Origin: a virus
UHGV virus genome: UHGV-1355782
Reading direction: 5' to 3' (one strand)
DNA: 43,206 nt
Made by a program: the position numbers and the translations under genes. Of this stretch, positions 12,764 through 15,325 are shown one piece after another. The stretch's first letter is position 1. Each line of letters opens with the position of its first letter. The notes below the pieces were generated by a model. The model had not been told where the DNA came from and did not search any database. It saw only the letters and a program-made list of their open reading frames with translations.

Positions 12764-12898
12764 AACGCGCAGAGCTTACGGCGGTCACACCAGAAATATC
12801 TGGCCCGGAATCAATTACCCAAAGCATAGAAGGACAGTCCACAGGCAACCAGTATCAGTCGTCTATCGTAATTCAACGTATTAGTTACGTATAAAACT

Positions 12899-12923
12899 AA
12901 GGCCCCGAAAGGGGCCTTTTTCT
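12899..12923. terminator. bidirectional rho-independent terminator
   Basis: AAGGCCCC-gaaa-GGGGCCTT flanked by T-run downstream and A-run upstream. Confidence 0.7.
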
Positions 12924-13099
12924 TACTCACTTTTGAACGGCATTTCGTAGAAGTTAGTTAACTGGCCTCGGTCACTTCGTTCTGTCATTTCTTTCGAGGC
13001 CTCTTCCTTGCTACCGACAGCATAAATATCAACCCACTCATCCCATTCTTCGTCATATACACGGATTACATATATTGTTTTCATAATATTTTCACTCAT
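12923..13099 (-). CDS. hypothetical protein (58 aa)
   Basis: ATG 13099 with RBS AGGAG 8 nt upstream; last gene of antisense island. Confidence 0.4.
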   Translation of the reverse strand: MSENIMKTIYVIRVYDEEWDEWVDIYAVGSKEEASKEMTERSDRGQLTNFYEMPFKSE

Positions 13100-13322
13100 C
13101 AATATTACTCCTGTACTCCCGTAACTTCTCCAGACTTTCAATTGCTTCTGCTAAGTCGGTTCCGGTGTCTTTGTGACCGCGCAGACCCATACACAGCAGT
13201 TTCTTTAACGCATGCTGTAGCGCCGGGTCACGGATATCGAAGGCGCGTAGCACATCATAGACGTCTACTGTCATGGTGCTGCCGTGGGTGTTTGTCATTG
13301 TGCGGTTGTATTTTGAAGTCAT
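13092..13322 (-). CDS. hypothetical protein (76 aa)
   Basis: ATGA coupling to upstream HNH gene; RBS GAGAGG. Confidence 0.45.
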   Translation of the reverse strand: MTSKYNRTMTNTHGSTMTVDVYDVLRAFDIRDPALQHALKKLLCMGLRGHKDTGTDLAEAIESLEKLREYRSNIDE

Positions 13323-13792
13323 TTTCCGTGCCTCTCAGTAAAGTCTTTCTTTTCTTTGTAAAAACCTTCGGCATATCTTACGGCGTCTTCTTTGTTGTCG
13401 AAACGCTTGGCTATTCTATTTCCGTTATATTGAATTTGAACTACCCACTTACCGTTATATGTTTTACTAACCCCGGTAACGCCAGACGAGTTATCCCTGC
13501 GCTTTGCTGCATTTTTGCAGTTTATGCGCCGGTCACACAGTCGAAGATTCTCTATACGGTTATCGCTTTTCACACCGTTTATATGGTCAATCTCCTTGCC
13601 TTCTGGTATAGCTCCGTTAAACATTTCCCATATAATTCTGTGGGCGAATGTCATTTTTGACCCTAGTTTAGTTCTTACATACCCTCGTTGGTCCACATAC
13701 CCTACTTTACGTCCTTTCGGGTACTTAGGGTTTACGCTGTCCTTAGCGTAAAGATTCCCGTTTTCGTATTCGTAAACATCATTCCATGTCAA
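13319..13792 (-). CDS. HNH homing endonuclease with AP2-like DNA-binding domain
   Basis: HNH motif EIDHINGVKSDNRIENLRL; C-terminal AP2-like GVTGVSKTYNGKWVVQIQYNG; TTG start coupled (TTGA) to upstream gene. Confidence 0.75.
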   Translation of the reverse strand: MTWNDVYEYENGNLYAKDSVNPKYPKGRKVGYVDQRGYVRTKLGSKMTFAHRIIWEMFNGAIPEGKEIDHINGVKSDNRIENLRLCDRRINCKNAAKRRDNSSGVTGVSKTYNGKWVVQIQYNGNRIAKRFDNKEDAVRYAEGFYKEKKDFTERHGK

Positions 13793-14928
13793 TTTATACC
13801 CCCTATCATTTCTGGTGATATTGTTAAACGTGCCACCTCCCCATATTCGGCACTATAAGTTATCACGTTAGCACTACGACCGGACATCCAGCCCCCTCGC
13901 GATGCGTAAGCATCTTTCGCAGCCAGGGTTCGGTGTTGTTCGACTACCATATTGCGGCTTTCTACTAATTTCTGATGATGTAGATGCCCTACATGAGCGT
14001 AGCTGTATGTGCTTTCTCCAAAAGCCTTACGGAATTTAGAAATCATTACTGACTCTATGGCGTCGAATCTCGCACGGTGTCCATGATGCATGAATAGCGT
14101 AGTTTTCCCGTGCTGGACCATCTTGTATACGTCTGGGGAGGTGTCCACAAATACGCGAGGTTCGTTGTCGTACAATGTACAGAACATTTCGGCGAGCCAT
14201 ACAGAGCCTACAGGGTCGTGGTTACCTTGAACTATTAAAAGTTTGACTGTGTGATGTTTAACAAGCGCCATATCGACAACACGACGCACCATACGAATCA
14301 TGTAGCGAACTAGTTTCTGATAGCGAGTATCGGCGTCTAACACATGACGCGACTCAGGGGTAACGGCATCAAGACTATCGAAGTGCGCGAAGTCGCCCAG
14401 CAGGTTAATAACCCCAGTCCCCGCATCCGGTGCTTTCTGAAACGCGGCATCGAACCAGCGGGAGAACAGGTCTTCTGCAATCTTCATATCCCAGTCATCG
14501 CCGCTCTCGTCAGCCCATGCAAGCATACCGAGATGGAAATCAGATACAGTGTAGAGATTGAGCAGTTTATCGTCACGTTTGGCGCGAACAGGTTTAACAG
14601 GCGCAACCGGTGTAATCTCTGACTTCATACCTTCAATCACGGCTTTCATCAACTCGACCTGACGTTCGGCATCGGTGTCGGTCTTAACCCATTGCAACTT
14701 AGTGTTGCCAAACTCGTCCACCAGGGACGACGTCCCTTTAATCTTGTAGCCGTCCGGTACAAGGTGACTAACATCACGCCCGTGACCTACGCCTTTCTTT
14801 GCCAGCTTCGCTTTACGGATACGAATTACGCGGTCTGAGATGCCGTATTTACGGGCGATGTCTACATTCTTCATCCCGGCGTTCAATTCTTCCTGTAACT
14901 GTTCGTCGGTTATTTTCTTCTGGGCCAT
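13789..14928 (-). CDS. HTH-domain protein fused to calcineurin-like metallophosphoesterase
   Basis: N-terminal HTH (VDIARKYGISDRVIRIRKAK); metallophosphatase motifs LLGDFAHFD, VQGNHD, HHGH; RBS GAGGAAG. Confidence 0.7.
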   Translation of the reverse strand: MAQKKITDEQLQEELNAGMKNVDIARKYGISDRVIRIRKAKLAKKGVGHGRDVSHLVPDGYKIKGTSSLVDEFGNTKLQWVKTDTDAERQVELMKAVIEGMKSEITPVAPVKPVRAKRDDKLLNLYTVSDFHLGMLAWADESGDDWDMKIAEDLFSRWFDAAFQKAPDAGTGVINLLGDFAHFDSLDAVTPESRHVLDADTRYQKLVRYMIRMVRRVVDMALVKHHTVKLLIVQGNHDPVGSVWLAEMFCTLYDNEPRVFVDTSPDVYKMVQHGKTTLFMHHGHRARFDAIESVMISKFRKAFGESTYSYAHVGHLHHQKLVESRNMVVEQHRTLAAKDAYASRGGWMSGRSANVITYSAEYGEVARLTISPEMIGGIN

Positions 14929-14966
14929 GCTTACTTCCTCGTGTTTAGGATTTGTCCTATACTAGC

Positions 14967-15158
14967 TCACTTCTCGTTAACATTCGAGTTGCACGCCCAG
15001 ATTAAAATAAATACCCACGGCAGCAGAACCCAACCAAGAAACAGGTTAGCCATAAATATTGCCAACTTCGCTTTATGGTTGCGGAAATACGCAACCAGGA
15101 AAGGCGCGAAATAAGCGAGAAGTGCAAACAGAATTAAGGAAACTGGTAAACTTGACAT
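14967..15158 (-). CDS. small membrane protein, superinfection-immunity-like (Imm family-like)
   Basis: two TM segments with motif NLFLGWVLLPWVFILIWA; RBS AAGGGG before ATG 15158 (ORF track starts 15173). Confidence 0.5.
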   Translation of the reverse strand: MSSLPVSLILFALLAYFAPFLVAYFRNHKAKLAIFMANLFLGWVLLPWVFILIWACNSNVNEK

Positions 15159-15188
15159 TTTAAACCCCTTCATTGTTGGTGTAAGTGA

Positions 15189-15217
15189 ATAGTACCCTAT
15201 TATATTGGGGTGTGCAA
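15189..15217 (-). promoter_or_regulatory. class-1 promoter TTGCAC-N17-TACTAT with palindromic operator (15187-15202)
   Basis: near-identical to element at 6126-6154; directly upstream of antisense island. Confidence 0.5.
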
Positions 15218-15325
15218 GTAATGTGATAGAATAATTTTGCGCCTAGTGTCGCACACGAAAAGCGGGTGGTTCCCGTCTGGCGCATTTACCTTTAACCTGT
15301 AACCTCTTAACCAAAGGATTAAAGA

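Follow-up and report, generated by a model that had tools for sequence, protein, structure and literature searches.

We find that a minus-strand gene at positions 13789..14928 of the 43,206-nucleotide stretch analysed here (the window), a Kagunavirus genome, encodes a metallophosphoesterase (MPE) of 379 amino acids with an N-terminal helix-turn-helix (HTH), belonging to the phage family PHROG 704, and that this protein is probably a DNA nuclease. We tentatively propose that it is a stand-alone MPE DNA nuclease, tethered by its HTH and independent of Rad50, that degrades host DNA and releases dNMPs; taken by itself, the role in host DNA degradation is a possibility that we hold with some reserve. 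An earlier note on this DNA had offered three roles (a DNA-targeted nuclease, a protein phosphatase or a nucleotide-signal phosphodiesterase) and held that none could be decided from sequence. That interpretation is partly supported, and the options can be narrowed: the nuclease is favoured by nuclease folds, an Mre11-type histidine, invariant active-site residues and neighbouring genes for dNMP enzymes.

The gene is as the earlier note described it, with an ATG start, and it is a true gene and not a chance open reading frame. A ribosome-binding site (GAGGAAG, 14934..14940, minus strand), read from the sequence, lies 5 nt upstream of the ATG. In this phage the gene sits in a minus-strand island within the tail module, adjoining the upstream gene of its transcription unit, which encodes a superinfection immunity protein (Imm; 14967..15173, minus strand; phrog_1039; Pfam Imm_superinfect, E 9e-13, exceeding the gathering score). 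A consensus scan placed a sigma-70-like promoter for the island at 15199..15227 on the same strand (ATCACA and TATAAT, 17 nt apart; 10/12 matches), and MPE would be transcribed with Imm from this host-type promoter of the island's own. Sigma-70-like sites in the region are no more numerous than in shuffled sequence, so this promoter is a candidate only, and it is from this one promoter-like motif that the timing of MPE expression is judged. The island ends at a bidirectional intrinsic terminator (12899..12918; 8-bp stem, six of its pairs G-C, and a run of T on each strand), which on the plus strand ends the tail-tube gene.

Downstream of MPE lies an HNH_3 homing-type endonuclease gene (13319..13792, minus strand; Pfam HNH_3, E 5e-22), whose TTG start overlaps the MPE stop codon in the junction TTGA. 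It is present in Kagunavirus HSE2 and absent from SHAK7693, Bas74 and K1ind1; it is a variable insertion and no part of the MPE enzyme. We rejected it as a functional partner because only some Kagunaviruses carry it. An HNH gene also stands downstream of MPE in T1 and in a Vibrio phage, and at some prophage-like loci an HNH gene of another Pfam type is located ahead of the terminase. We likewise rejected the idea that the 76-aa open reading frame at 13092-13322 is a remnant of a dNMP kinase displaced by the HNH gene: it does not resemble K1ind1 ORF17, and is a small, widespread protein in its own right.

The MPE protein is not unique; to judge by profile and similarity searches, it is a member of a large existing phage family. 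Its residues 3-375 match positions 1-389 of the 390 in phrog_704 (E 8e-163), a family whose label, 'DNA repair exonuclease', is an annotation-derived name. Homologues number 2476 clusters at E<=1e-3 in a 90%-identity database, 4537 representatives in a 50%-identity library and 2043 phage records by tblastn, and the same length and architecture recur in about 2000 phage genomes. Kagunavirus genomes encode proteins 93-97% identical to it, while T1 gp16 (ST16) is 45% identical and keeps all motifs and the HTH. The family also includes TLS gp66 and orthologues in Guernseyvirinae, Dhillonvirus and Webervirus, and in Drexlerviridae the exonuclease is persistent, being found in 508/522 (PMC13164509). 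Members occur as well in large bacterial chromosomal contigs, adjoining terminase, portal and endolysin genes, and these loci look like prophages. No NCBIfam or PADLOC model matches the protein, and full-text literature searches gave no paper reporting experiments on the family. The papers on Metis and PUA-Cal-HAD were considered as possible work on this protein and set aside, their subject being host calcineurin-like effectors.

All five motifs of the MPE superfamily (DxH, GD, GNH(D/E), H and GHxH) are present, each encoded on the minus strand: motif I, SDFHLG (aa 129-134; 14527..14544); motif II, GDFAHFD (aa 178-184; 14377..14397); motif III, GNHD (aa 235-238; 14215..14226); motif IV, HHGH (aa 281-284; 14077..14088); and motif V, GHLHH (aa 314-318; 13975..13989). 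The earlier note had listed the second, third and fourth as all the key metal-binding motifs. Those three are where it saw them, but motifs I and V had been overlooked. We counted conservation among 143 divergent family representatives (32-51% identity). D130, H132, D179, N236, H237 and H282 are retained in 143/143 and H317 in 142/143 (the exception being a gap), so that these seven core metal-ligand or catalytic residues are invariant in relatives; the loss of such residues in homologues, which the earlier note had named as grounds for giving up its reading, was not seen (n=143). Of the flanking histidines, H182 is present in 140/143, H315 in 135/143, and H182 aligns with the motif-II histidine of Thermotoga maritima Mre11 (GDLLH). 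The Pfam models Metallophos and Metallophos_2 stay under their gathering scores in the query (22.3 vs 27 and 18.4 vs 21.5 bits), so the domain assignment is based on motifs and fold; the Pfam Metallophos models do not reach so divergent a family.

An AlphaFold2 model (mean pLDDT 92) gives the architecture, which is encoded on the minus strand throughout. The HTH that the earlier note had read at the N terminus is borne out as a three-helix domain resembling sigma-70 region 4 and LuxR/GerE (aa 8-44; 14797..14907), with helices at 8-16, 21-28 and 32-44 (pLDDT 90-94). The region gives weak GerE and FixJ matches in the query, and in homologues it matches Sigma70_r4_2 (best E 1.5e-9), GerE (2.4e-8), HTH_8, HTH_1 and HTH_23; these Pfam matches are confined to a subset of members, and all 143 representatives have an N-terminal region of 40 aa or longer. 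It is followed by a flexible linker (aa 45-60; 14749..14796; pLDDT 61-67, falling below 50 at aa 49-51) and by a subdomain of a beta-hairpin and a helix (aa 61-102; 14623..14748; strands 61-70 and 76-85, helix 87-102), which is conserved in two alignments, with G74 and W80 near-invariant. The catalytic domain (aa 119-375; 13804..14574) has the alpha/beta sandwich of the MPE superfamily. The earlier note had suggested structure prediction with fold comparison as a check; run here, it returned the MPE nucleases PolD DP1, Mre11 and SbcD as the closest solved structures. By phmmer no solved structure matched the protein significantly, and a 62-member family profile found weak Mre11, MPE-nuclease and GerE matches in the PDB (E 0.03-0.4).

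These results bear on the two other roles of the earlier note and on a further one. The protein could be mainly a regulator, its HTH binding specific host or phage promoters in host shut-off or a phage transcription switch with the phosphoesterase secondary, or else a protein phosphatase of the lambda-PP kind with host signalling proteins as its substrates. The resemblance of the HTH to sigma-70 region 4 and to LuxR/FixJ effector domains favours a regulator, as do a weak match (E 1e-3) of the query to a PHROG labelled 'late transcriptional activator' and the description of T5 A1 as a pleiotropic protein that takes part in host shut-off and DNA transfer. The marks of a PPP-type phosphatase (GDxxDRG in motif II, GNHE in motif III, a fold closest to PPP) are absent from the protein, and we regard this pair of roles as very improbable. 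Scarcely better placed is a phosphodiesterase of small molecules: it would break down nucleotide second messengers (cyclic oligonucleotides, cNMPs) or further nucleotide signals used in host defence, and its HTH would serve autoregulation. Nucleases top the fold search; an N-terminal domain kept in every representative, with HTH matches in a subset, is hard to explain for a hydrolase of soluble signals; the defence models of PADLOC and those of NCBIfam are silent; in Drexlerviridae the gene belongs to the persistent core rather than to the accessory anti-defence genes; and its genomic partners are dNMP enzymes.

Those partners emerged from a survey of 148 loci, representing 71 MPE clusters at 70% identity, in a locus scan from a 10-sequence alignment. 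In several unrelated phage lineages MPE stands beside genes for a dNMP kinase and a dNMP phosphatase. A dNMP kinase (phrog_139) is near MPE on the same strand in 17 of the 71 clusters; a HAD phosphatase (phrog_415) directly adjoins it in three, and in a fourth, that of T1, lies 35 kb away, the T1 dNMP kinase being 34 kb from the MPE homologue. HD-type 5'-deoxynucleotidase-like genes are near MPE in five clusters, and MazG-like and deoxyribosyltransferase-like genes were also found. For example, in Kagunavirus K1ind1, whose MPE is 94% identical to ours, the operon reads Imm, MPE, HAD phosphatase, dNMP kinase. T5 Dmp, the 5'-dNMP phosphatase acting downstream of A1, belongs to phrog_415. We liken these loci to T5, where the MPE-like A1 degrades host DNA. 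The source phage itself lacks both the HAD phosphatase and the dNMP kinase.

The same neighbours could be read as a nucleic-acid end-healing set, in which MPE would be a 2',3'-cyclic or 3'-phosphoesterase and, with a HAD 3'-phosphatase and a P-loop kinase, would mend tRNA or DNA after cleavage by host defence nucleases. The phosphatase domain of Clostridium thermocellum Pnkp is an MPE. The K1ind1 gene next to MPE, ORF18, hits Pfam HAD_PNKP (E 7e-20) as well as PHROGs that bear the label 'polynucleotide kinase', and a P-loop protein follows. The same pair recurs in Drexlerviridae, where polynucleotide kinase and dNMP kinase are the commonest genes immediately following the exonuclease (PMC13164509). 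Against this, the P-loop neighbour hits phrog_139, the dNMP kinase family (E 6e-46), and not a Pnkp kinase domain; phrog_415 also holds a mononucleotide phosphatase, T5 Dmp; other lineages pair MPE with the deoxynucleotidase-like, MazG-like and deoxyribosyltransferase-like genes; the siphophage MPE has no accompanying ligase; the source phage has none of these partners; and an HTH would be unexpected on an RNA repair enzyme. We consider end healing improbable.

A more serious alternative, still unlikely in our estimate, is a nuclease that works on phage rather than host DNA, processing ends like Mre11 in recombination-dependent replication, at concatemers or hairpins, or in the repair of broken genomes. 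This reading underlies the usual label of 'DNA repair exonuclease'. It would account equally for the fold neighbours, and gene position offers it further support: at many loci MPE lies at the end of the replication module, directly before the lysis and packaging genes; in Campylobacter phage F365 a member lacking the HTH adjoins DNA ligase and Holliday-junction resolvase genes; and the family also occurs at the prophage-like loci. In Drexlerviridae the gene is located ahead of the lysis cassette; the PHROG 704 proteins there show no essential difference from that of the source phage, and it is the gene location that differs. What counts against the alternative is that a Rad50/SbcC partner is lacking throughout the Kagunavirus genome, that the recurrent neighbours are enzymes of mononucleotide metabolism and not ligases or recombinases, and that the role of recombination exonuclease is already taken: both genomes encode a dedicated recombination exonuclease adjoining an annealing protein, in T1 a RecE-like exonuclease and Erf, in Kagunavirus an exonuclease and a Gp2.5-like protein.

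Destruction of the host chromosome has been known in T1-like phages since the 1980s, and the classical degradation-defective T1 mutants of Roberts and Drexler show higher transduction. T1 and TLS degrade the host genome, and the gene behind this was not identified (PMC11447400). The predicted metallophosphatase A1 of T5 is both needed for host DNA degradation and enough to cause it, as shown by ectopic expression and knock-out with DNA-content readouts (bioRxiv 10.64898/2026.04.02.716235), and in T4 the SbcD-like gp47 is on record as needed for it. The Tunavirinae phage Bas12 is countered by a defence system that is triggered by m6-dAMP, a product of the degraded host DNA.

The host-degrading nuclease that we propose would work as follows. 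The small N-terminal HTH, on its flexible linker, would keep the enzyme on DNA while the C-terminal binuclear-metal domain, similar to those of Mre11, SbcD and DP1, cleaves phosphodiester bonds, in the likeliest case releasing 5'-dNMPs as an exonuclease and needing no Rad50/SbcC partner. Its likeliest task would be the breakdown of the host chromosome, supplying deoxynucleotides to phage DNA synthesis, the same task as that of A1 and gp46/47 in T5 and T4. Several observations weigh against this proposal. The protein has neither the capping domain of Mre11/SbcD nor a Rad50 partner, and shows no detectable relation to T5 A1 beyond superfamily motifs. Wholesale destruction of host DNA is less expected at the prophage-like loci, and the neighbours of the HTH-less Campylobacter member suggest repair or recombination. 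The source phage carries no HAD phosphatase or dNMP kinase of its own, and the literature yielded no report of host DNA degradation by Guernseyvirinae.

We nominate this gene, conserved and near-universal in Drexlerviridae, Guernseyvirinae and Dhillonvirus, as a candidate for the host-degradation enzyme of T1-like phages because of its nuclease-type active site, its DNA-binding tether, its dNMP-handling neighbours and the precedent of T5 A1. A wider and more doubtful conjecture is that PHROG 704 is the nuclease family behind host-chromosome destruction in T1-like phages and related virulent siphophages. Its members would be HTH-tethered MPE exonucleases that work without Rad50 and evolved in parallel to A1; the dNMPs that they release would pass to the neighbouring dNMP kinase and Dmp-like enzymes, and the exonucleases would also generate the m6-dAMP alarm sensed by Metis and PUA-Cal-HAD. 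If true, MPE nucleases would be a recurrent tool of host-genome demolition (T4 gp46/47, T5 A1, PHROG 704), the family would offer a Rad50-independent model for an Mre11-like enzyme, and a source would have been found for the methylated-mononucleotide danger signals sensed by new defence systems. For annotation, 'DNA repair exonuclease', 'DNA polymerase II small subunit' and 'polynucleotide kinase' are putative labels that are spreading through thousands of phage genomes.

Among known systems, Mre11/SbcD share the nuclease-type site: the motif-II histidine (GDLFH) and the motif-III histidine are both found in the MPE protein. Their C-terminal capping domain is absent from it, and an N-terminal HTH and beta-hairpin subdomain stand in place of their features. 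No Rad50/SbcC partner is annotated in Kagunavirus Bas74 or T1, nor does one occur among the conserved neighbours at the 148 loci. Identity to Mre11, SbcD and T4 gp47 is just 12-17%, gp47 belongs to phrog_100 rather than phrog_704, and the family profile matches PDB Mre11 chains at E 0.06-0.24, which places the protein outside the Mre11/SbcD sequence family. PolD DP1, the archaeal small subunit with 3'-5' proofreading exonuclease activity, is 12% identical and has an OB fold where the MPE model has its HTH and beta-hairpin; the annotations of Kagunavirus and T1 contain no DP2-like gene. Because T1 has the homologue and no annotated DNA polymerase, proofreading for a phage polymerase cannot be the general function.

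The comparison with T5 A1 is of another kind. BLASTP found nothing significant between the two proteins, hhalign gave 28% probability over 22 columns in the GNHD region only, and in BFVD fold searches with both models neither found the other's family. A1 belongs to phrog_1745, and its 556 residues include a large beta-rich middle domain that the MPE protein lacks. We therefore rejected membership of the A1 family and accept a relation at the superfamily level only. Yet both proteins have a helical or HTH module at the N terminus, then a flexible linker, and end in an MPE domain, and A1 relatives at about 46% identity likewise bear N-terminal HTH domains. The two models have seven distant BFVD neighbours in common, and both genes are linked to a phrog_415 phosphatase, T5 dmp lying two genes from A1 and K1ind1 ORF18 adjoining MPE. 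The likeness is most readily taken as an analogy between members of one superfamily, and we keep A1 as a functional analogue.

The 43.2-kb window is the essentially complete genome of an E. coli siphophage belonging to Kagunavirus (Guernseyvirinae). Megablast of window positions 12800-15300 matched ZCEC5, K1-type and other Kagunavirus and Jerseyvirus genomes, and the layout, with structural genes on the plus strand at 1-24 kb and replication genes on the minus strand at 25-37 kb, agrees with that of the annotated phage Bas74. The earlier note had described a helix-turn-helix (HTH) fused to a metallophosphoesterase (MPE), and this observation was correct: ORF listing bore out a 379-aa reading frame at 13789..14928 on the minus strand with an ATG start, and a Shine-Dalgarno sequence, GAGGAAG, lies 5 nt 5' of the start codon. 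All three of the motifs it named were located (GDFAHFD at residues 178-184, GNHD at 235-238 and HHGH at 281-284), together with two further superfamily motifs that it had overlooked, SDFHLG at 129-134 and GHLHH at 314-318.

Modelled with AlphaFold2 from 62 homologues (mean pLDDT 92), the protein contains a three-helix HTH at residues 8-44, a low-confidence linker at 45-60, a conserved beta-hairpin plus helix at 61-102 and a compact MPE domain at 119-375. The HTH signal in the query sequence is weak (GerE, E = 0.025, and FixJ-type matches); relatives match Sigma70_r4_2, GerE, HTH_8, HTH_1 and HTH_23 with best E-values of 1.5e-9 to 9e-6, and these matches and the model together confirm the N-terminal HTH. 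Because Pfam Metallophos models score below their gathering thresholds on the 379-aa protein, the MPE domain call rests on motifs and fold. Among 143 representatives with 32-51% identity, D130, H132, D179, N236, H237, H282 and H317 never vary, and H315 is conserved in 135 and H182 in 140; loss of metal-binding residues in homologues, which had been named as grounds for rejecting the assignment, was not seen. Judged from sequence, enzyme activity is likely.

The role had been left as a choice among DNA nuclease, protein phosphatase and nucleotide-signal phosphodiesterase. The first now stands as a probable DNA nuclease and candidate host-DNA-degrading enzyme, while the other two have become less likely. 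In fold searches, the small phosphodiesterases MJ0936 (13.6) and LpxH (13.5) were intermixed with nuclease folds, with the cNMP phosphodiesterase Rv0805 at 11.9 and the protein phosphatases PP1/PP5 near 9; the margins are modest. Overall, we consider it very improbable that the protein cleaves a signal nucleotide, and least probable of all that it serves as a regulator or protein phosphatase.

The protein has many relatives. Its whole length aligns with the profile of PHROG 704 ("DNA repair exonuclease"; E = 8e-163), and tblastn found homologues in 2043 phage records, at 83-97% identity in Guernseyvirinae, about 74% in Dhillonvirus and 40-45% in Drexlerviridae and Klebsiella Webervirus, as well as in Vibrio, Rhodobacter, Acinetobacter and Campylobacter phages. 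Among 1.84 billion cluster representatives there were 4537 matches at E<=1e-3. The T1 homologue gp16 (ST16) is 45% identical, and in a 2026 pangenome study 508 of 522 Drexlerviridae have a "DNA repair exonuclease" 5' of their lysis cassette (PMC13164509). Homologues carry the database names DNA repair exonuclease, calcineurin-like phosphoesterase, DNA polymerase II small subunit, wHTH protein and hypothetical; no NCBIfam or PADLOC model matched the protein, and a literature search for PHROG 704 members found no experimental paper. Homologues at 31-53% identity also lie within large bacterial chromosomal contigs (L009-L075), beside terminase, portal, endolysin and primase genes, as in Dyella halodurans (L014), Luteibacter (L062) and Agrobacterium burrii (L032). 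These loci, in Alpha-, Beta- and Gammaproteobacteria, are apparently prophages, and the family therefore extends beyond virulent phages.

In the window, the gene belongs to a minus-strand island running from 15.3 to 12.9 kb (12899-15300) between the tail-tube and tail-assembly-chaperone genes of the plus-strand tail module, with a GC content of 0.44 against about 0.52 in its surroundings. A motif scan gave a candidate promoter with a perfect TATAAT on the minus strand at 15199-15227, although such motifs are no more frequent in the region than in shuffled sequence; early expression of the island, suggested by this motif, is accordingly only conjectural. A perfect bidirectional terminator is predicted at 12899-12918. 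The gene order is a T4 Imm-type superinfection immunity gene (14967-15173, minus strand), MPE, an HNH_3 homing-type endonuclease (13319-13792, minus strand), which starts at a TTG overlapping the stop codon of the MPE (TTGA), and two small ORFs. Kagunaviruses HSE2 and Hrm2 have the HNH gene; SHAK7693, Bas74 and K1ind1 lack it. In T1 (ST15) and Vibrio phage K162, too, an HNH gene lies 3' of the homologue. The 76-aa ORF (13092-13322, minus strand) occurs in 774 phage records, among them phages of Salmonella, Escherichia, Acinetobacter, Vibrio and Stenotrophomonas. Its alignment to the longer profiles phrog_2452 (150-220 of 235) and phrog_17613 ('ATPase') is confined to their C-terminal ~70 positions; that it is a remnant of the K1ind1 dNMP kinase was rejected. 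The 72-aa ORF at the island end (12923-13141, minus strand) matched nothing in Pfam or PHROG under the cut-offs applied. Since the genes 3' of the MPE differ among close relatives, the island looks like a gene-exchange hot-spot.

Genomic context in other genomes is the most informative result. In K1ind1, whose MPE is 94% identical, the slot 3' of the MPE holds a HAD phosphatase and a dNMP-kinase-like gene where the window has HNH; a search of the window found neither partner. The kinase-like gene encodes a P-loop protein that matches dNMP kinase family phrog_139 (E = 6e-46). The HAD phosphatase (ORF18, L076:3628-4113) matches Pfam HAD_PNKP and phrog_415 (E = 8e-67), to which T1 ST64 (L007:4948-5478) and T5 Dmp (L003:124-858; E = 4e-57) also belong. 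T5 Dmp has been characterised as a 5'-dNMP phosphatase and acts after the A1-dependent breakdown of host DNA. Pnkp-like end-healing by the window protein is quite improbable. Like phrog_415 itself, the T1 and K1ind1 genes are labelled 'polynucleotide kinase', yet they hold the HAD phosphatase domain only; in many phage annotations this name may mislead.

We fetched homologous loci from bacterial genomes (67) and viral contigs (80), called ORFs, clustered neighbours and searched them with HMMs from seed proteins; at 70% identity the MPEs of the 148 loci fall into 71 clusters. In 17 of the 71 a dNMP kinase is nearby, nearly always sharing the strand and mostly 0-4 kb off; in T1 it is 34 kb away. 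The HAD Dmp/PNKP-like phosphatase adjoins the MPE in three clusters and is 35 kb apart in a fourth (T1), and an HD-type "deoxyribonucleoside 5'-monophosphate phosphatase" (phrog_318; weak YfbR-like Pfam match) is nearby in five. MazG-like pyrophosphatase and DUF1937 (nucleoside deoxyribosyltransferase-like) also recur. Because gene orders vary among lineages, namely MPE-HAD-kinase (Kagunavirus, Vibrio-phage-like contigs), kinase-MPE (L010), kinase-HD-MPE (L047) and MPE-x-HD-x-kinase (Rhizobiales loci), the linkage is not a single inherited block. Independently, polynucleotide kinase and dNMP kinase were the commonest genes directly 3' of the exonuclease in Drexlerviridae (PMC13164509). Enzymes using 5'-dNMPs are the expected neighbours of an exonuclease producing them.

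We conclude that the protein is probably a DNA nuclease. The HTH would tether it to DNA, where it would act without Rad50 and free dNMPs, its main use being host DNA breakdown; this last role is a tentative proposal. T1 and TLS break down the host genome and reuse its nucleotides, and a 2024 TLS paper, in which the homologue gp66 is annotated "proof-reading exonuclease", lists the gene products behind host degradation among open questions (PMC11447400). One defence system responds to m6-dAMP from degraded host DNA and protects against Bas12, a Tunavirinae phage, which is consistent with mononucleotide release in T1-like infections. The literature searched does not report host DNA degradation in Guernseyvirinae. 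The main rival, end-processing or repair of phage DNA, draws on a Campylobacter-phage family member that adjoins ligase and resolvase, on placement of the MPE gene at the end of replication modules and on the prophage-like homologues, but T1 and Kagunavirus already possess recombination exonucleases, and we regard it as rather unlikely. The protein offers a specific and readily testable candidate for the old question of how T1-like phages degrade host DNA.

Precedents exist in T5 and T4. T5 A1, a predicted metallophosphatase, is necessary and sufficient for host DNA degradation (bioRxiv 10.64898/2026.04.02.716235). Its relatives at ~46% identity (P0343, P0345, P0346, P0373, P0385) have N-terminal HTH_23, HTH_38, HTH_7 and CENP-B-type Pfam domains, and the model of an A1 orthologue begins with a three-helix bundle, followed by a flexible linker, a large beta-rich domain in the middle and the MPE at the C-terminus. 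A second, unrelated family of phage MPEs thus also pairs an HTH with an MPE, a modular logic common to both, although A1 has no detectable homology to the window protein past superfamily level; BFVD fold searches with the two families did not retrieve one another and had seven distant neighbours in common. In T4, SbcD-like gp47 is on record as needed, with gp46, for host-DNA degradation, and hhalign against gp47 was collinear across 188 columns, though weak (E = 0.0055). The window MPE shares the DxHLG and GNHD motif forms of Mre11, and its family profile pairs GDflHyD with GDLLHS of T. maritima Mre11, making H182 the equivalent of the motif-II histidine. Unlike Mre11/SbcD, however, it lacks the capping domain, Kagunavirus and T1 have no Rad50/SbcC gene, and it falls in PHROG 704 rather than PHROG 100. 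The protein is no new type of system: it would join the MPE-superfamily phage nucleases and falls in a catalogued family, and it probably works like an Mre11/DP1-type nuclease while standing outside both families.
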